From sequence record PZ019083.1: 41,142 nt of DNA, one strand, 5' to 3'. Position numbers and translations under genes: made by a program. The DNA is from a phage. Below are positions 12,523 to 38,940 of the stretch, piece by piece. A model generated the notes under the pieces. That model ran no database searches, was not told where the DNA came from, and saw only the letters and a program-made list of their open reading frames with translations. The first letter of the stretch is position 1. Every line of letters begins with the position of its first letter.

Positions 12523-12714
12523 CTACTTCTCTTTCACGTTCGAGTTGCAAGCCCAGATTAAAATAAATACCCACGGCAGCAGAACCCAGCCAAGAAACAG
12601 GTTAGCCGTGAATATCGCTAACTTCGCTTTATGGTTACGGAAGTACGCAACCAGGAAAGGCGCGAAATAAGCGAGAAGTGCAAACAGAATCAAGGAAACT
12701 GGTAAACTGGACAT
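12523..12714 (-). CDS. superinfection-immunity-like small membrane protein (Imm_superinfect family-like)
   Basis: Two TM helices; motif YFAPFLVAYFRNHKAKLAIFTANLFLGWVLLPWVFILIWA; AAGGGG RBS before ATG 12714. Confidence 0.5.
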   Translation of the reverse strand: MSSLPVSLILFALLAYFAPFLVAYFRNHKAKLAIFTANLFLGWVLLPWVFILIWACNSNVKEK

Positions 12715-12744
12715 TTTAAACCCCTTCATTGTTGGTGTAAGTGA

Positions 12745-12773
12745 ATAGTACCCTATTATATTGGGGTGTGCAA
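12745..12773 (-). promoter_or_regulatory. sigma70-type promoter TTGCAC-17-TACTAT (class A) driving the antisense accessory operon
   Basis: Near-identical to promoters at 34294 and 35511. Confidence 0.55.
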
Positions 12774-28712: not shown

Positions 28713-29954
28713 TTATTCTAAATCTTCTCCACTAACCTGATTCCACTCAGGCCGTTTGTCGTCTGCCGTTGCAACGCATGGCGCTCCCGGCTTACGGGTA
28801 ATGAAGTCTTTCAGTTCTTCTTCCGGTATTACTTTAACAGCTTCGGTCGGTGTCATTAGCACTTCTTTAGTTAGCTTGTCGCCGTAGAGTTCTGTTACTT
28901 TCTCCGCGTCTTTCCACGCACGATTACTGGGACGGCCTTCAACCAGTTTGTACCCAGGCACTTTCTTACCTGAATGCAAAGCGGCGGCCATCGCTTTTTC
29001 AACCTTGTCGATGTGCTGGCGCAACAGCGGCAACTTCTCATACTCAGCTACGAGTTGCTCAGGCGTAAGTTCCAGCGCAAAGTCGTCCTCCAGTTCTTCC
29101 GCCAGTACCGCGTTAACGGTTTTTGTACGCGCGGCGCACTGTTCTGAGAACCGACACCACTGACAACCATCTGCAGAAGGCTTGAAGTCCGACGCTTTCA
29201 GGTTCTTCTTGCCGCGGGAATAAGCATCAAGAGCCAACAGCGCGCGTTTATGTGCGAACTTAGCGAACAGTTCCAGACCTTCAACCGAGATGTCCCACTC
29301 CGACGCACCGCCAGCATACGGCTGGAAGATTACCAGACGAACGGTTGTTATGTTATAACGTCTCTTGAGTCGGCGATAAACACCGAGAGCGTAAAGCATA
29401 AGCTGCTTGTTTTCTTTCGCTTCGACGCGATGTCGCCCGGTTTTAAGGTCCCCAATAATGAGCATGTGCTCGTCGGTGTTAGCCAGTTCCTGAACGGCAA
29501 CAAGGTCAGCGGTCCCGAACGTCTCAACGCCTTCATACCCAGGATGCAATACCTCAGTGAGATTGACGCGCATTTCCAGCTTGGCGTAAGTCGCAACGTC
29601 GATAATCGCTTTGCAGTAGTCGGTATACTTGCGCACCTGCTCAATCATGTCAGCCGTAATCAGTACCGCGCCTTTCACCGGGCTGATTAGAGCCTTAATC
29701 TGACCTTTGCCCTCATCCAACACGTAAGCACCAACTTCACGCTCTAATGGAAACGCAGTGCCTTTGATGTACTGGTTAAGGTGCATTTCCGCTATGGTGT
29801 GCATAGTCGTACCTAATACTGCGGCCTTACCGGACGTGTTAGGAATATCTTTTTCACAGGCCAGTGATGCAGCACAGCTTAGCCACTTTTTAGCGCCAGA
29901 CGGCGACAGCAGGGCGTGCACATCGTTATTGCCGCCGCGTTCTTTTAAAATCAT
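28713..29954 (-). CDS. Cas4-like PD-(D/E)XK exonuclease (DUF2800-like) with C-terminal Cys cluster
   Basis: N-terminal LSPSGAKKWLSC, C-terminal CQWCRFSEQC; ATG 29954 with GGGAGA RBS and ATGA coupling. Confidence 0.55.
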   Translation of the reverse strand: MILKERGGNNDVHALLSPSGAKKWLSCAASLACEKDIPNTSGKAAVLGTTMHTIAEMHLNQYIKGTAFPLEREVGAYVLDEGKGQIKALISPVKGAVLITADMIEQVRKYTDYCKAIIDVATYAKLEMRVNLTEVLHPGYEGVETFGTADLVAVQELANTDEHMLIIGDLKTGRHRVEAKENKQLMLYALGVYRRLKRRYNITTVRLVIFQPYAGGASEWDISVEGLELFAKFAHKRALLALDAYSRGKKNLKASDFKPSADGCQWCRFSEQCAARTKTVNAVLAEELEDDFALELTPEQLVAEYEKLPLLRQHIDKVEKAMAAALHSGKKVPGYKLVEGRPSNRAWKDAEKVTELYGDKLTKEVLMTPTEAVKVIPEEELKDFITRKPGAPCVATADDKRPEWNQVSGEDLE

Positions 29955-30223
29955 ACCCTGTTCTCCCACTGGTCGATTAAATGTCGTGTCTTATGCCCAC
30001 AATGCATAGCCCACCCATACATCGACTCAAAAACATAAAAGTCAGGCTTGGCGAAAGTCGTGCGCTTAATCTGTGACACGTGACGGCCTAAAGATATAGG
30101 CCGCGGTACTTTGCCTAAGTACGCCATCTCTTCCATCTGGTGCGCACCGGACGGCGCACGCAACAGCCATAGTGCCTCCGTGTTGTCCCGCCTGTCTACG
30201 GCCCGGTAGAGTTGGTAAATCAT
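29951..30223 (-). CDS. hypothetical protein (90 aa)
   Basis: Coupled upstream of nuclease gene. Confidence 0.35.
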   Translation of the reverse strand: MIYQLYRAVDRRDNTEALWLLRAPSGAHQMEEMAYLGKVPRPISLGRHVSQIKRTTFAKPDFYVFESMYGWAMHCGHKTRHLIDQWENRV

Positions 30224-30266
30224 AATTCCGACCCTCAGTTAAAGCGGCCCGAAGGCCGCGAGATAG

Positions 30267-30767
30267 TTAGTCTTCTTCGAAATACTTGTTCTTGATTGCC
30301 GTCAGGCGTTCAAGGTACTCAGCAAGGTCTTCATCTTTAATCGCGGCAATCTTCATCTTCTTACCGGTGAACTCCTCCAGCAGTTCATCAGAATCATCAC
30401 ACGCGGCATCGCTCGGACCTTCGTTAATGGCGTCGTCGATAGCCTGAATCTGGTCACGCAGAGACTGGTAATCGACTTCTTCTTTCTCTTCTTCCGGCTC
30501 TGGTGTCGGCTCCTCTACTTTAGCTTTACGCGGCTTGCGTTTTGGCTTCTCTTCTTCAACCGGTTTAGTATCAACTACGTCTTCACCTTCGACCGGGATT
30601 TCTTTTGATCCTTCTTCTGCACACTTGGCTACTGCTTCTTTGGTATACGCTACCGTCTCTACTTCCAGAGGCGCGGAAACCTGAACAACTTGTTTCACGC
30701 TGTTCGCAGCAATCAGTTCATGAGCAACTACGAAACGTTCCAGTAATACTAAGAATTTCTCTAACAT
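30267..30767 (-). CDS. highly acidic hypothetical protein with short basic patch
   Basis: E/D-rich (PEPEEEKEE, DDSDELLEE) plus KPKRKPRKAK. Confidence 0.4.
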   Translation of the reverse strand: MLEKFLVLLERFVVAHELIAANSVKQVVQVSAPLEVETVAYTKEAVAKCAEEGSKEIPVEGEDVVDTKPVEEEKPKRKPRKAKVEEPTPEPEEEKEEVDYQSLRDQIQAIDDAINEGPSDAACDDSDELLEEFTGKKMKIAAIKDEDLAEYLERLTAIKNKYFEED

Positions 30768-30798
30768 TTGTTTCTCTCCTCTCGTTTGGTATGGGCTA

Positions 30799-30827
30799 AC
30801 TATAATAGCGAACTATTCACATGTCAA
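30799..30827 (-). promoter_or_regulatory. sigma70 promoter TTGACA-17-TATAGT (class B), overlaps operator repeat R1
   Basis: Consensus hexamers; spacer carries ACTATTCACATGTCAA. Confidence 0.6.
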
Positions 30828-30855
30828 TGGGCTTTTCTAAAATAATTAATATGGT

Positions 30856-30871
30856 ACTATTCACATATCAA
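30856..30871 (+). promoter_or_regulatory. operator repeat R2 (ACTATTCACATATCAA) overlapping -10 TACTAT of the Cro-like gene promoter
   Basis: 15/16 identical direct repeat of 30812-30827, 44 bp apart. Confidence 0.45.
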
Positions 30872-30891
30872 CTGACTAAGGAGTAATTGAC

Positions 30892-31107
30892 ATGCAACCA
30901 TCTGAACTAGGCATTCGTGTAGAACAACGCCGTAAAGAACTTGGCATCTCCCAGCGCCGTCTGGCTGTCCTGACCGGGGTTTCCCAGGGCGCGATTAACC
31001 AGCTTGCGCTCGGGGTAACTCAGGACGTCCGCCCGGCGACGCTGTTTAAACTGGCGGAAGTGCTGCAAGTAGACGCCAAGTGGCTGGCGTTAGGTGAAGG
31101 GGCTTAA
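30892..31107 (+). CDS. Cro/CI-type (XRE family) HTH transcriptional regulator
   Basis: Motif GISQRRLAVLTGVSQGAINQLALG; 71 aa. Confidence 0.65.
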   Translation: MQPSELGIRVEQRRKELGISQRRLAVLTGVSQGAINQLALGVTQDVRPATLFKLAEVLQVDAKWLALGEGA

Positions 31108-31124: not shown

Positions 31125-33395
31125 CTATTCCAAATCCTCCTCTGTCACCACCAGCATTTCATTCGGTTCGTATATTGTCTTCGGAATCTTGTTATCGTTT
31201 ATACCCCACGGCAATCGGTATTGCTTAGGGATAGGCCTGTTGTTGTTACCCAGACCTGAGACGATAACCCCGGCCTCGTGCATCTCTTCCAGTTTCTTTC
31301 GAAGGTCGTTATTAGCGTTAATCGGTACGCCGTAACTATCTTCTTTCGCTGCTTTGACGATAGCCGACATGGAAAACCCCCGCTTGTCGTCACCCTGCTC
31401 CTGCAATTTACCTAACGCGTAAATAACCGTAGCTTCTTTGGTATCCAGTTTCTCGAACTGACCTACCTTTTCTTTAACAGCCGCTTTACCTTCCTTTGTC
31501 AGCCCTTCTTCCCGCTCTTTCTCCTCGTCGGTCTTGAATGGTTCGAAACCCCACGGCATCAGCACAAGCGCCTTGTGTGGTTCAGGCAGGTCGAGGTTTA
31601 CGATTGTGCCGTATTCCTCCGTGCTTCCGAGGAACTCAACCGCGCGGTACTCTTTCGGTGGTGGCGCTTCACGGAACTGTACCGACTCCAGTACCATGCC
31701 AACCGTCTTCTGTTGAGGCCCGTGCTTAAATTTCGAGTGGTATACATTTATTTGACGTTCGGTCGCGCGTTCGATTGTTAGTTCCACGTCGACACCAGCG
31801 TACAGCGCCCCACTGCCACGGGCTTTCTTTCCACCTTTCGGCGTATGGTGGACAACGCCTACCGCGGCTTTAGTTGCGTCGCGTACTTCTTTCAGGATGG
31901 CGATAACTTTACCCATGCCGATTGTCGTTGATGAACTGTTCTCGTCGAACTTATCAATCGTCAGGGCCAGCGTCTGGTTGAGGGTGTCGAACGCAACCAT
32001 ACCAATAGGCTCGTCGCCCGCAGTTTCGCGCATTAACTTAATCAGGCTTTTCAGTTTCCCGACTTCGCCCATGTCGATAACATGTACATAATCTTTACCT
32101 TCCTCGCCATATTTAGCCGCTAGTGCGTCGATACGTGTGCGCGTAGCTGCGCCACCTTCACCGTCGATATAGAAATGGTGGCAACGCTGGGTATCTGCCC
32201 CGGCAAATCTGTATCCGGCGGCGCTAAGGTACATCATCCCCAGCGTATAAAACGATTTGTACGTTCCAGACTCCCCGACGATATCCCAGATGCAGTCTGT
32301 CGGCATGTATCCTTCTACGACGAAATCAGCCTTTACCGGTTCCGGTAACTCGTCCTCCTCTGAGTCCTCGTCGTCTTCCAGGTCGTCCAGACTGCATGAA
32401 ACTGACTCACGCGCACCCCAGCCGATGGCCTCGGCGACTTCACTGAATGGAAGACCAGTCGCATCACACGCATACTTCCACACCTCTTTCGGTGACATGC
32501 CCTCGGTTGCCGTGATGTCTGTGTCGTGAATCATGGTTACGTTAGGTGCTTCGTACCCCTCGCGCGGGAAGCACAGCAGGAAGTCGTCCGGGCGCGGGGT
32601 CGGGTCGCTGTAGTTTTCTGCGTGTTCCGGTGTGGCGGGCATCTTAAGTCCACGCGGCGTCATGATGCCGCCGTATTCGAACGCCAGTGCCTCGAACGCA
32701 TCAGTAAATGCCGTGCGCAGTTCTTCTGGTATCTGGTAATCCGATGCGCTGCTCACCTCGTAATCCGGGATGCCTTCCAGTAACTCGTCCGGGTCAATCA
32801 GGTCGTTACGGCGCGACCAGATAACGGTAGAGCCGACAGGCGGCAGGTACATCGGCTGCGACAGAGTGAACCCGCTGTGGTCCGCACCCATGCCTTTGAA
32901 GAAGTGCTCCAGCAATCCATGACGAACACGGATGATGCCACCACCTTCGACCGGGCGGCCCAGCGGCATGACGACGCGAAAGCGCGGTGACTCATCGGTA
33001 TGTGATGCCGTGGTGTAGAGGCACATAGCCAGGCGGCTACGCTTAACCAATCGCACCGCCTCCTGATACTCGTCAGGTGTTGCACTGTCGAAGTCCAGAT
33101 ACGCCAGCGACGATTTGTTTACAGACGCATCGCAGCGATAGAAGAAGCCTTTACGCGCCTGCTTAAAGTCCCCAGTTTCCGGGTCTTTTACGGTGCTGTG
33201 CGTTGAGTCGCACGCGGCGGTGATATACCCCGGCGCGGTCTTCGGGTTAATTCCGTCGCGAACAGCATCGAGCGGCTGGATTAACTCTTTCAGGTCGTCC
33301 AGTGTTGCCGTGTGTGTGGTTCTGACGTTTATATCCTTTTTCTCCGCCCGCGCGTTGCGACGAGACCACGAGTAGGATAAAATTACATCGGACAT
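31125..33395 (-). CDS. primase-polymerase domain fused to RecA/DnaB-like ATPase (replicative primase-helicase)
   Basis: Walker A GESGTYKS, Walker B-like VAFDT, N-terminal primase-polymerase-like region. Confidence 0.65.
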   Translation of the reverse strand: MSDVILSYSWSRRNARAEKKDINVRTTHTATLDDLKELIQPLDAVRDGINPKTAPGYITAACDSTHSTVKDPETGDFKQARKGFFYRCDASVNKSSLAYLDFDSATPDEYQEAVRLVKRSRLAMCLYTTASHTDESPRFRVVMPLGRPVEGGGIIRVRHGLLEHFFKGMGADHSGFTLSQPMYLPPVGSTVIWSRRNDLIDPDELLEGIPDYEVSSASDYQIPEELRTAFTDAFEALAFEYGGIMTPRGLKMPATPEHAENYSDPTPRPDDFLLCFPREGYEAPNVTMIHDTDITATEGMSPKEVWKYACDATGLPFSEVAEAIGWGARESVSCSLDDLEDDEDSEEDELPEPVKADFVVEGYMPTDCIWDIVGESGTYKSFYTLGMMYLSAAGYRFAGADTQRCHHFYIDGEGGAATRTRIDALAAKYGEEGKDYVHVIDMGEVGKLKSLIKLMRETAGDEPIGMVAFDTLNQTLALTIDKFDENSSSTTIGMGKVIAILKEVRDATKAAVGVVHHTPKGGKKARGSGALYAGVDVELTIERATERQINVYHSKFKHGPQQKTVGMVLESVQFREAPPPKEYRAVEFLGSTEEYGTIVNLDLPEPHKALVLMPWGFEPFKTDEEKEREEGLTKEGKAAVKEKVGQFEKLDTKEATVIYALGKLQEQGDDKRGFSMSAIVKAAKEDSYGVPINANNDLRKKLEEMHEAGVIVSGLGNNNRPIPKQYRLPWGINDNKIPKTIYEPNEMLVVTEEDLE

Positions 33396-33453: not shown

Positions 33454-33729
33454 TTATTCCAGGTCGCGGGAGATATTACCCTCGGGGACCAACACTTTTC
33501 CAATACTTCTCGCTTTCCCGTTAAGCGGCGTTGCTCTTGTTGCCCGATAAAACTTTCCTTTATTAAGAACCTCTCCGTGTTGCTCAAGAACACTTAAAGC
33601 ATGTTTAATCGGATTTACACCGTAATTATCTAACCGGTATCTACGAAGCCCGTCTAGTGTAAAAGCGCCGTTCGCCTCGGTCAGTCTGCGTGCGCACATT
33701 AATACGTGTTTCTGGAATTTAGTTAGCAT
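33454..33729 (-). CDS. hypothetical protein (91 aa)
   Basis: Coupled downstream of small HTH gene. Confidence 0.35.
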   Translation of the reverse strand: MLTKFQKHVLMCARRLTEANGAFTLDGLRRYRLDNYGVNPIKHALSVLEQHGEVLNKGKFYRATRATPLNGKARSIGKVLVPEGNISRDLE

Positions 33730-33898
33730 CTTTTACGTTCTCCTTAATCCAAGCCTCCACGGTAGCGCGGTCAAATGTGCCTGGCTGCCGGTAGCCGTTA
33801 ATAACCCGGCAACACTCGGGGAACTTACCTGACCGAAGCCAGCGATTAAGTGTCATAGGGGAAACTCCGATTAAGTCTGCTACTTCTTTCTGTGTCAT
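33719..33898 (-). CDS. small HTH DNA-binding protein (AlpA/excisionase-like fold)
   Basis: MTQKEVADLIGVSPMTLNRWLRSGKFP; ATG 33898 with AGAGGG RBS. Confidence 0.5.
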   Translation of the reverse strand: MTQKEVADLIGVSPMTLNRWLRSGKFPECCRVINGYRQPGTFDRATVEAWIKENVKDAN

Positions 33899-33927
33899 TT
33901 TACACACCCTCTTTATCAAGTGAAACA

Positions 33928-33956
33928 ACTATAACACCTACAATAACTAAACACAA
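33928..33956 (-). promoter_or_regulatory. candidate promoter TTGTGT-17-TATAGT for minus-strand replication operon
   Basis: -10 identical to class B promoters; weak -35. Confidence 0.35.
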
Positions 33957-33960
33957 CCTA

Positions 33961-33988
33961 TTGACAAAATAAAATGTAGCTGTAAAAT
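33961..33988 (+). promoter_or_regulatory. sigma70 promoter TTGACA-16-TAAAAT
   Basis: Consensus -35; faces a 350-bp noncoding stretch. Confidence 0.5.
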
Positions 33989-34210
33989 CAACGTATCGAA
34001 GGACCTTAGTTCAGAATTACTTAGAAACAGTATTCTTAAGTCTCTGGTGACCAAAGCCCGGCCCATAAAGGACGGGCGCTGAGAGTCACTTCGACAACGT
34101 TAGTATCTAAGTTTCCTCAAAGTAACAGCAAGTAGCAAGAAAGCCCCCGTCTATTTAAATTTTGCCATATGGTATAAATCATTGATTTGCAAGCTCACTC
34201 ACTCACTCTT

Positions 34211-34226
34211 GGTGCCTTCGGCACCA
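34211..34226 (+). other. GGTGCC-TTCG-GGCACC hairpin (UUCG tetraloop)
   Basis: Perfect 6-bp stem, followed by GTTCGTTTCGTTTCG. Confidence 0.4.
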
Positions 34227-34293
34227 CGTTCGTTTCGTTTCGCTCGCTACCCCCATTAAACGAAAGAATCACAACGGCAACGTAACTATTCTC

Positions 34294-34322
34294 TTGCACA
34301 CCCCAACATAATAGGATACTAT
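34294..34322 (+). promoter_or_regulatory. sigma70 promoter TTGCAC-17-TACTAT (class A)
   Basis: Near-identical to 35511 and 12745(-); ACTATTC copies at 34285 and 34318. Confidence 0.55.
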
Positions 34323-34356
34323 TCACTTATCGGAACGAGACAGAGGAGTGAGGGTT

Positions 34357-34542
34357 ATGTTTAAGAAGGGTCAGTTGGTGAGAATTTTGGAGACAGGGGG
34401 GTTAGCGGTTATTTCATTCGCACACCACAAAGAATGTAGTGTTTATTTTGCAAAATCTTTAACGGGGTCCTATCTCACCGTGTTATACGCACAAGATATG
34501 AAACTCATCGGCAACAATTTTAAATTCAAAGGGGCGAAGTGA
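34357..34542 (+). CDS. hypothetical protein (61 aa)
   Basis: GAGGAG RBS 7 nt upstream. Confidence 0.45.
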   Translation: MFKKGQLVRILETGGLAVISFAHHKECSVYFAKSLTGSYLTVLYAQDMKLIGNNFKFKGAK

Positions 34543-35510: not shown

Positions 35511-35539
35511 TTGCACGCTAATATAGAATAGGTTACTAT
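35511..35539 (+). promoter_or_regulatory. sigma70 promoter TTGCAC-17-TACTAT (class A)
   Basis: Consensus-like; ACTATTCA overlapping -10/+1. Confidence 0.55.
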
Positions 35540-35570
35540 TCATTTACACAAACGAGAGGAGAGGCGGAAG

Positions 35571-38310: not shown

Positions 38311-38455
38311 TGGAAGAGAACTGGGACGTATAGTACAATTGCAGCGCCGCTTGTGCTTGCGAAGGATTGAAGTGATGATGGACGAATACGAAGGCGTTTA
38401 GTAAACTTACATCACGCTGCTTGTGCTTGCACCACCCCGAAACCCGGACCCCGAA

Positions 38456-38484
38456 ACCCGGACCGCGAATCCGGGTTTTATTTT
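38456..38484 (+). terminator. intrinsic terminator
   Basis: ACCCGGA-CCGCGAA-TCCGGGT + TTTTATTTT. Confidence 0.55.
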
Positions 38485-38613
38485 GCCCGCAGTTTGATAG
38501 ACTAACGGCAACAGAAGATTAAACAACATTGAGGGCACTCCGGGTATCATCACCCTCATGGACCTGTAACAAGGTCTGGCCAAAGTGCGGTAACGCGTGC
38601 CGGAGAATCTCTG

Positions 38614-38642
38614 TTGACACCTAAGACTAATCCGACGATACT
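38614..38642 (+). promoter_or_regulatory. candidate promoter TTGACA-17-GATACT
   Basis: Consensus -35, 4/6 -10. Confidence 0.35.
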
Positions 38643-38648
38643 TAAATC

Positions 38649-38714
38649 ACCTCCTGTTCCATCCCTCTACTCTCCAGTTTTATCCCGGCCCTGACCCAGC
38701 CGGGATTTTTTTTT
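38649..38714 (+). ncRNA. candidate short RNA (about 65 nt) ending in strong terminator
   Basis: Promoter-like site upstream, TCCCGGC-9nt-GCCGGGA hairpin + T9; carries ATCACCTCCT. Confidence 0.25.
38683..38714 (+). terminator. intrinsic terminator
   Basis: 7-bp GC stem, 9-nt loop, nine consecutive T. Confidence 0.65.
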
Positions 38715-38736
38715 ATTTATTTTCTGCAATGACTAG

Positions 38737-38765
38737 TTGACTATTACCTTCGACCCTATTATATT
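38737..38765 (+). promoter_or_regulatory. sigma70 promoter TTGACT-17-TATATT
   Basis: Near-consensus hexamers upstream of gene at 38800. Confidence 0.55.
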
Positions 38766-38799
38766 TACTGCATCGACAACGAGAACGGAGTAGAGAGAA

Positions 38800-38940
38800 A
38801 TGAGAATTTACAAGGTTGAGCTTCACGGTAAAGTACTTGGTCATTATAACTTTGGCGAGTACATCTCCGCCGATTGCGCACGTGACATCCTGATTAGCGA
38901 AGGTTTTAGTCAATACATCAAAGTCACGGAGATTAAATAA
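38800..38940 (+). CDS. hypothetical protein (46 aa)
   Basis: GGAG RBS; not in ORF track (under 60 aa). Confidence 0.4.
   Translation: MRIYKVELHGKVLGHYNFGEYISADCARDILISEGFSQYIKVTEIK

Follow-up and report, generated by a model that had tools for sequence, protein, structure and literature searches.

Results

Genomic setting of the intergenic region

The window, i.e., the whole 41,142-nt stretch of phage DNA analyzed here (record PZ019083.1), was identified by BLAST as a Kagunavirus (Guernseyvirinae) genome, with K1H, K1ind2/3, and K1G as the nearest phages; its source is a virulent Kagunavirus-type coliphage. According to the same searches, parts of the region under study are common to hundreds of Escherichia and Salmonella (Jerseyvirus) phages. 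The gene order runs from the terminase genes through the structural genes to a leftward replication block, followed by rightward small early genes and lysis genes. The replication block encodes a DNA polymerase, an exonuclease, and a 756-aa helicase-primase. The latter is preceded in its leftward operon by a gene for a 59-aa helix-turn-helix (HTH) protein and a gene of 91 aa, in this order. The 59-aa protein matches the PHROG family phrog_66, "excisionase and transcriptional regulator" (E 2.6e-11), and its homologues match the Pfam family PF12728 (HTH_17). Searches for tRNA and tmRNA found none. The features discussed below are collected in Table 1.

Between the replication operon, which is read leftward, and the early genes, which are read rightward, there is a non-coding gap at positions 33899-34356. 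A preliminary description of this DNA stated that the gap holds no plausible ORF, and indeed the ORFs found within 33899-34356 do not exceed 43 aa, none of them being conserved. A minus-strand ORF of 39 aa (33947-34066) was rejected as a conserved gene, its ATG being lost in K1H, and so were the small ORFs annotated in the corresponding gaps of relatives, which are not common to these relatives. The cumulative GC skew reaches its minimum at about 34000, in agreement with an origin here; this minimum, however, coincides with the switch in gene orientation and thus is not independent evidence.

Table 1. Features of the intergenic region and of the genes on either side, in the coordinates of the window
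Feature	Position	Strand	Basis
XRE-type repressor gene; one P2-type promoter copy precedes the gene	30892-31107		
Helicase-primase, 756 aa	31125-33395	-	ORF list
C-terminal cassette of the helicase-primase, residues about 630-756	31128-31508	-	
Predicted winged-helix domain, residues about 652-727	31215-31442	-	predicted structure
HTH_17/excisionase-like DNA-binding protein, 59 aa, first gene of the leftward operon	33719-33898	-	ORF list, PHROG, PF12728
Candidate leftward promoter, TTGTGT(33956-33951)-17-TATAGT(33933-28), back to back with P1	33928-33967	-	scan and sequence reading
Alternative candidate leftward promoter, TTGTCA(33967-62)-16-TATTGT(33945-40)	33928-33967	-	scan and sequence reading
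P1, near-consensus sigma-70 promoter, rightward, TTGACA(33961-33966)-16-TAAAAT(33983-33988)	33961-33988	+	scan
Left cassette, type A, untranslated, about 90% common with K1H/K1ind3	33989-34165	+	alignment
Hairpin 1 of left cassette A, GCCCGGCC-CATAAA-GGACGGGC	34056-34077	+	
Hairpin cassette, type X, between ...TGAT (left) and the invariant box (right)	34187-34262	+	comparison with relatives
CTCA repeat, 3.75 copies	34194-34208	+	TRF
Perfect palindrome/hairpin, TGGTGCC-TTC-GGCACCA, 7-bp stem, 3-nt loop	34210-34226		
Pentanucleotide run after the hairpin, GTTCG-TTTCG-TTTCG	34228-34242	+	
Invariant 17-mer, GAATCACAACGGCAACG	34266-34282		comparison with relatives
P2, TTGCAC(34294-34299)-17-TACTAT(34317-34322)	34294-34329	+	93-99% conserved, 192 phage records
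Inverted repeat spanning the P2 -10 element, AATAGGATACTATT	34310-34323		
Shine-Dalgarno sequence of the 61-aa early gene, GAGGAGTGAGGG	34343-34354	+	
First rightward early gene, 61 aa, phrog_12538	34357-34542	+	ORF list, PHROG

Promoters and the conserved right end

The gap is very probably a region of divergent early promoters, of which two, P1 and P2, point rightward, in agreement with its earlier description as a divergent control region with promoters. P1, the TTGACA-16-TAAAAT promoter proposed in that description, matches the consensus at 11 of 12 positions. Sites of this grade number 4 in the window, versus 0.37 +/- 0.66 expected from first-order Markov simulations. P1 has the hexamers of a sigma-70 promoter, a spacer within the 16-18 nt range, and a position conserved in relatives: throughout the approximately 60 related loci, exactly one rightward TTGAC[AT] is present, 270-337 nt to the left of the invariant box. 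Transcription from P1 is expected to start at about 33995. We infer that leftward promoters are located at 33928-33967, where scanning and reading of the sequence yielded two candidates. Relatives carry TTGCTT-17-TATACT or TTGATT-17-TATACT at the same distance from the start of the HTH gene as the leftward candidates of the window, and these sequences are consistent with such an assignment. The extended -10-like site noted previously, TGGTATAAA, is present at 34170-34178, but it is not a conserved promoter, because at this position the RP180-type relatives have AAATATCTAAGT and one further relative (L063) has ATTAACCTAAGT.

The most conserved part of the gap is its right end. Positions 34258-34356, which include a short leader with the Shine-Dalgarno sequence, are 93-99% identical in 192 phage records from two genera. 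An exact copy of the 17-mer is present in the isolates fetched and in about 35 IMG/VR contigs of Guernseyvirinae, Kagunavirus and Jerseyvirus both being represented. P2 occurs four times in the genome, with further copies at 12742(-), 30845(+), and 35524(+), each located 25-30 nt before a ribosome-binding site and an ATG; the 17-mer is absent at these other P2-type promoters of the window. In reverse complement, P2 corresponds to the "phage promoter" consensus that PHIRE was reported to find seven times in Kagunavirus fBC-Eco01 (PMC9825357). We read P2 as a member of the phage's own early promoter/operator family, which would serve the rightward early genes. The preliminary description overlooked these best-conserved parts of the region, namely the invariant 17-mer and the promoter TTGCAC-17-TACTAT.

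Mosaic of left and right cassettes

The comparison covered about 60 related loci, which were taken from GenBank phages, IMG/VR, ENA, and Logan. Between P1 and the invariant box, the region is a mosaic of four left cassettes (A-D) and three right cassettes (X, Y, and Z); the left cassettes are mutually non-alignable, and so are the right ones. The combinations observed are DZ (15 loci), BY (10), BX (9), AY (5), DY (3), CZ (3), and AX (1). Thus, left and right cassettes exchange independently of each other. The boundaries of the swaps are sharp and are formed by a conserved CTGAT on the left and by the GAATCAC of the invariant box on the right. The window combines A with X, being K1H-like to about 34165 and RP180-like (97.6%) at 34187-34262, and its flanks at 29000-31100 are equally similar to K1H and RP180. 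An alternative description of the window's own pattern is a mosaic in which a single internal patch is K1H-like. Within left cassette A, the pairing of hairpin 1 is kept in K1H despite a change from G:C to C:G, as seen in the K1H/K1ind3 alignment.

The right cassette of the window, type X, is 97.6% identical to that of RP180/Sciku and is replaced in K1H. The CTCA tandem repeat reported earlier was recovered by TRF at approximately 3.8 copies; in type-X phages, its copy number ranges from 2.75 to 6.75. The palindrome that follows had been described as a GGTGCC-UUCG-GGCACC hairpin. The hairpin is indeed perfect, but this reading contained one G too many: the loop consists of the three nucleotides UUC, and a UUCG loop of the cUUCGg tetraloop kind would leave a C.C mismatch. 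The sequence said to follow the hairpin, GTTCGTTTCGTTTCG, is present as described. It forms a pentanucleotide (GTTTC) run, with 2-3 copies in type-X phages and no second copy of the run in the window, and part of it, TTTCGTTT (34233-40), is able to pair with AAACGAAA (34258-65). No second copy of the cassette motifs was found elsewhere in the genome.

A scan for terminator-like hairpins found one, versus 0.7 expected in shuffled sequences. This number is within chance, and the case for the hairpin as a real element comes from comparison with relatives and not from the single-sequence scan. Each type of right cassette carries a different GC-rich perfect palindrome in the same place, the one of type Y being GGGTGGGC-TAAC-GCCCACCC. 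Locus L080, which has X-type flanks, carries the stem GGCCCC-TGC-GGGGCC, i.e., two compensatory pairs. Among the variants of type Z, a C:G pair of the stem is changed to T:A, and loops vary while stems hold (for example, a TCC loop in L082). In our reading of these comparisons, the hairpin is a selected structure.

The GC content over the cassette is 0.47-0.55, with no AT-rich center. A k-mer cluster scan detected no iteron cluster at the cassette. Iterons in opposite orientation around an AT-rich center were likewise not seen there, the only repeats being CTCA (x3.75) and GTTTC (x3), which lie on the same strand and vary in copy number. The possibility that CTCA acts as an anti-Shine-Dalgarno sequence was considered and rejected. 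The minimum free energy fold of the leader pairs CTCA with the Shine-Dalgarno sequence, but this duplex is no better than those of shuffled leaders (z about -0.8; 54/300 for the window), and the idea also fails in relatives that have another first gene.

The exchangeable C-terminus of the helicase-primase

The helicase-primase is a mosaic as well. Residues 1-625 of the window protein are 96-100% identical to K1H, while residues 630-756 are only 17-40% identical to K1H and 96-100% identical to RP180; the first 615 residues of RP180, in turn, are only about 25% identical to the window. The swap point is located at residue 625-630, approximately. Pfam detects AAA_25 in the core only, and a search of PDB chain sequences returned no homologue for the whole protein and nothing significant. 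A single-sequence AF2 run on the C-terminus reached a pLDDT of 39 and gave no usable model. With an alignment of 12 sequences, AlphaFold (overall pLDDT 59.7) modeled residues of about 652-727 as helix-helix-helix-strand-strand with a pLDDT of 75-80. We assign the C-terminal cassette, with moderate confidence, as a predicted winged helix (WH) nearest to that of Cdc6/Orc1 and also similar to linker histones and to the WH domains of MCM. According to this model, the protein is a helicase with a C-terminal winged helix, as are the initiators of the SaPI Rep, P4 alpha, and pRN1 type.

Covariation of the hairpin cassette with the C-terminal cassette

The relationship between the two cassettes was analyzed in 444 Guernseyvirinae records within a collection of 50,697 phage records, and in contigs. 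The 20 records that carry hairpin cassette X are the same 20 in which the C-terminal 127 aa of the helicase-primase are at least 93% identical to those of the window; for the other 424 records this identity is at most 46%. Analogously, all cassette Y records (32/32) are among the 34 records with the C-terminal type cY. Among the contigs, Y occurs with cY in 10/10 cases, across left cassettes A, B, and D and N-terminal types 1 and 2; X occurs with cX in 5/5, in addition to the window, and Z with cZ in 8/9. The totals are 20/20 isolate records, 9 contigs, and the window for X with cX, and 32/32 records and 11 contigs for Y with cY. All exceptions involve type Z, which is carried by two cY isolates and by two cX contigs and thus has been seen with cZ, cY, and cX.

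The hairpin-cassette type does not track the type of the N-terminal domain or the left cassette, and the intervening DNA (helicase core, N-terminal domain, two small genes, and left cassette) does not track the hairpin-cassette type. N2+cY contigs carry B+Y and N2+cZ contigs carry C+Z. Window-like proteins from four independent metagenomes (L062-65) are accompanied by A+X, and L080 carries X with its compensated stem. Coupled differences at both ends, with conserved DNA between them, are seen when the window is compared with K1H, when L049, L057, L066, and L067 or L054 and L072-79 are compared with the RP180 group, and when L038 is compared with the D+Z group. It should be noted that, because the sequences are related, independent events are fewer than the counts suggest; we distinguish about six genomic contexts that are independent of each other, all of them concordant.

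The association is not due to linkage with a neighboring gene, because the XRE gene beside the C-terminal cassette is 94-99% identical in X, Y, and Z phages. For the same reason, the XRE repressor was rejected as the partner of the palindrome. Complementarity between the hairpin cassette and the WH-coding mRNA was rejected as well, since a word-7 self-BLAST of 34186-34262 versus 31125-31520 showed no similarity. Because the type of the hairpin cassette changes with that of the winged helix across freely recombining DNA, the simplest account of these data is that the cassette would be the cognate site of the WH domain of the helicase-primase.

Discussion

A candidate replication origin

The preliminary description offered two readings of the region, a replication origin and a small structured RNA. 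The former is strengthened by the covariation of cassette and winged-helix types, whereas the latter has gained no support. In our opinion, the hairpin cassette, i.e., the right half of the region, is on balance probably a replication origin or a helicase-loading site of the helicase-primase, because it appears to be the cognate site of the WH domain of this protein. The winged helix would bind the hairpin cassette and load the hexameric helicase-primase there, in a manner comparable with SaPI Rep/PriRep, P4 alpha, and pRN1 ORF904. Transcription from P1 through the site may open or activate it, as in the origins of lambda, T7, and T4, and the hairpin may also stop or pause the P1 transcript ahead of P2 (34294-34322). 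The window yielded no further candidate origin; its sole other repeat cluster (38440-38480) sits in a window-specific insert that is absent from K1H and RP180. The lack of an iteron array, of an AT-rich center, and of a second motif copy, together with the location upstream of the operon, departs from the picture of a classical origin and speaks against this reading. A description of a Guernseyvirinae replication origin was not found in the searchable literature.

Several known systems resemble the proposed arrangement in part. In phage P4, the alpha protein unites a primase, a helicase, and a C-terminal sequence-specific DNA-binding domain that recognizes the origin in one polypeptide. In P4, ori and crr each consist of octamer iterons and lie apart from each other, while here neither iterons nor a second copy were found in the genome. 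Origins activated by transcription include lambda ori with pR, the primary origin of T7 behind phi1.1A/B, and the R-loop origins oriF and oriG of T4. The likeness to the present region consists of a strong promoter fixed upstream of the putative origin and of early transcription of the site; the difference is that those origins have an AT-rich unwinding element beside the promoter or iterons.

A parallel in terms of specificity is provided by the SaPI Rep and PriRep proteins, in which a C-terminal WH reads the cognate ori and different elements possess different, matched WH/ori pairs (PMC9371898). Like SaPI Rep and PriRep5, a helicase (fused to a primase in SaPI5) that uses a C-terminal WH as its origin-recognition module (PMC9371898), the protein described here is a primase-helicase with an exchangeable predicted WH, and, judged from sequence types, the matched pairs of SaPIs have a counterpart in the matching type of the non-coding cassette. 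The SaPI ori, however, lies directly downstream of rep, whereas the hairpin cassette is part of a divergent promoter region and is separated from the start codon, on the upstream side, by about 0.8 kb with two small genes. Furthermore, the SaPI ori is built from 6-12 iterons of five or six nucleotides that are oppositely oriented on the two sides of an AT-rich center, in contrast with the GC palindrome and same-strand simple repeats found here, and the SaPI ATPase is SF3/MCM-like, while that of the helicase-primase is AAA_25 (RecA/DnaB-like).

Another parallel is ORF904 of plasmid pRN1, a multifunctional replication protein that combines a primase-polymerase, a helicase, and a winged helix and acts on a stem-loop origin. 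The integrity of the pRN1 stem-loop matters, and a similar protein architecture together with stem-loops was noted in several bacteriophages (PMC4234260). In the present case, the stem is kept by compensatory changes. It measures 7-8 bp, whereas the stem-loop of pRN1 is about 100 nt and is located downstream of the gene; moreover, pRN1 is an archaeal plasmid, and the genome described here is that of a virulent coliphage. A self-loading initiator-helicase with a WH domain and a cognate cis site would be of a known kind; what would be new is the family in which it occurs, as well as the location and shape of the putative site, for which no description was found in the literature.

Other readings of the region

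The hairpin could instead serve chiefly as an RNA terminator or pause site that limits the P1 transcript to about 235 nt from its start and insulates P2 and the early genes, a function that may coexist with an origin. The hairpin is the only terminator-like site of the region in the scan (7 pairs, 3-nt loop, 5 T in 8), and its stem, with 5 GC pairs, lies about 215 nt beyond the point at which P1 transcription is expected to start. Its position between P1 and P2 is constant. The energies of the RNA hairpin are well under those of shuffled sequences for all types (z -2.6 to -4.8), and the compensatory pairs of X versus L080 and of the Z variants, with their variable loops, speak for an RNA element, and so does the one G.T variant (L025), which is tolerated on the plus strand only. 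The constellation resembles lambda pR'-6S RNA-tR', in which a constitutive promoter, a short untranslated transcript, and a GC hairpin precede an operon. What differs from lambda pR'-tR' and from intrinsic terminators in general is the poor or absent U tract. In type Z, the stem is followed at once by UUU (UUUAGUU), but the tail of the window (ACGUUCGUUUCG; CGUUCGUUUC) lacks an uninterrupted U run at this place, and the tail of type Y, ACUGCGUUGCG, lacks any U tract. In addition, the downstream operon has its own promoter, and the hairpin type covaries with the replication protein; there is no reason why the type of a terminator should change in step with that of a protein domain whose coding sequence lies at a distance of 2.7 kb. 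Consensus folding without a plus-strand preference and the number of terminator-like sites expected in shuffles also weigh against this function, which we regard as rather unlikely to be the chief one. A dual use of the cassette, in which the DNA would act as a structure- and sequence-specific loading site for the WH and the RNA as an attenuator of the strong P1 transcript before P2, so that binding of newly made helicase-primase would switch early transcription to replication and the cassette and WH would form an exchangeable specificity pair, is a doubtful extension of these readings.

It is improbable, in our estimate, that P1 produces a trans-acting structured RNA of approximately 235 nt (33995 to about 34240) directed at host or phage targets. 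The strong conserved promoter, followed by 270-337 gene-free nucleotides in every relative, would suit such an RNA, and so would two features of the D+Z relatives: parts of their leader are nearly invariant across two genera, and their stem-loops contain 5 compensatory pairs, with a covariation score of 0.100 versus at most 0.062 when slid. However, no Rfam 15 family matched at the gathering threshold in the whole window (0 matches), and only noise was returned at E <=10; within 33850-34420, the best sub-threshold match scored 16.3 bits versus a gathering score of 50. For the plus strand of the window, folding did not surpass that of shuffled sequences (z -0.97). The minus strand does fold better (z -3.5), and the scan and reading of the sequence found no minus-strand promoter for it. 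The consensus energy of the D+Z group is equal on both strands (-45.5 for the reverse strand against -44.1). The terminator is weak, and cassettes A and X, whose counterparts are swapped independently, cannot be aligned with D and Z. Because the two halves recombine freely, they do not form one co-folded RNA. The earlier proposal of a small structured RNA is thus not borne out.

Finally, the WH domain might bind the cassette only to regulate P1 and P2, either by autoregulation or as an early-to-replication switch, with replication starting elsewhere. The covariation of cassette and WH fits a regulatory operator equally, the cassette is located downstream of P1 and 30 nt from the -35 element of P2, and the tolerance of type Z for non-cognate WH types is easier to reconcile with a modulatory site than with an essential origin. 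Against this stands the C-terminal WH of P4 alpha, which reads an origin. The WH of other characterized helicase initiators of this architecture, such as SaPI Rep/PriRep, reads the origin as well (PMC9371898), and the lack of another candidate origin in the window points the same way. We hold a purely regulatory operator to be improbable.

Implications

The Guernseyvirinae, which comprise the Jersey-, K1G-, and SETP3-like phages, are widely isolated and are used for therapy and biocontrol of Salmonella and E. coli. The present analysis is an example of how the covariation of a protein cassette with a distant non-coding cassette can be used to assign a function to an intergenic region. If the dual use of the cassette is real, the specificity pair could decide which co-infecting relatives replicate each other's genomes. 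If the hairpin cassette is indeed the origin or loading site, the origin of these phages would be pinned to a cassette of 75-125 bp, the domain that reads it would be identified, and both would be swapped as a pair in nature, which would provide a handle for engineering or typing Guernseyvirinae phages.

Promoter copies and the genes they precede

The conserved rightward early promoter P2 belongs to a promoter/operator family that is repeated in the window with the pattern cTTGCAC-N10-TAnAATAGGnTACTATTCA, in which an inverted repeat, AATAG-N4-CTATT, spans the -10 element. The pattern has four matches in the window versus 0.00 expected, and every copy is followed, 25–30 nt downstream, by an RBS and an ATG. 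When reverse-complemented, the P2-type sequence gives the "phage RNA polymerase promoter" consensus that PHIRE yielded in the published work on fBC-Eco01 (PMC9825357). A casual reading of the annotations of the window and of the related Kagunavirus phages K1H and RP180 brought no phage RNA polymerase gene to notice.

One P2-type promoter drives a 71-aa gene of the XRE family, which is oriented convergently with the helicase-primase gene and is 94–99% conserved among Kagunavirus types; it was missing from the ORF list because that list was limited to ORFs of at least 90 aa. The copy at 12742, within the tail-gene block, lies immediately upstream of a 62-aa hydrophobic ORF (MSSLPVSLILFALLAYFAPFLVAYF...), which is itself upstream of the DNA repair exonuclease gene.

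Three more sites match the sigma-70 consensus at 11 of 12 positions, two of them as TTGACA-17-TATAGT and one as TTGACA-16-TTTAAT; those at 30827 and 28708 are each upstream of a leftward replication-gene block.

Features located in the window
Feature	Position	Strand
P2-type copy	12742-12760	-
P2-type copy	30845-30863	+
P2-type copy	34307-34325	+
P2-type copy	35524-35542	+
XRE-family gene (HTH_3/HTH_19/HTH_31)	30892-31107	+
Hydrophobic ORF	12526-12714	-
Sigma-70 site	30827	-
Sigma-70 site	28708	-
Sigma-70 site	20797	-
Helicase-primase gene	31125-33395	-
Invariant 17-mer	34266-34282	
Non-coding insert	38402-38612	
Candidate small RNA	38615-38716	+

The mosaic helicase-primase, a candidate small RNA and a non-coding insert

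The helicase-primase is a natural three-part mosaic. Its N-terminal 300 aa occur in Kagunavirus as two types (N1 and N2) with a mutual identity of only 21%, the helicase core is common to both, and the C-terminal winged-helix cassette (cX, cY or cZ) is swapped independently of the other parts. All six combinations are found: N1 and N2, each with cX, cY and cZ.

Immediately after the endolysin gene, a stretch at 38613-38800, conserved at 95% in K1H and 89% in RP180, holds a candidate small RNA in which TTGACA-17-GATACT is followed by the CU-rich segment CACCTCCTGTTCCATCCCTCTACTCTCC and this in turn by a strong terminator (CCCGGC...GCCGGG followed by T9). The non-coding insert, missing from K1H and RP180, carries two direct copies of CCCCGAAACCCGGA and an inverted TCCGGGTTT; these repeats make a hairpin, followed by TTATTTT.

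The invariant 17-mer and a possible history of the leader

The invariant 17-mer (GAATCACAACGGCAACG), placed immediately between the variable cassette and P2, is retained in Kagunavirus and Jerseyvirus (loci L001-L057) and is missing from the other P2 copies in the window. Left cassette B, one of the exchangeable non-coding types (RP180, Sciku and Golestan; L003-L005), includes ATGAACAAGCGACCGCGG, which is similar to the start (ATGAACAAAGCGACCGCAA) of an alternative first early gene found downstream of P2 in other Kagunaviruses (L022, L037-39). In BEU33 (L006), a duplicated piece of the ATGAACAAGCGACCGCGG-containing sequence adjoins the 17-mer. This likeness, together with the BEU33 duplication, suggests that the leader was assembled through earlier duplications of the promoter region.
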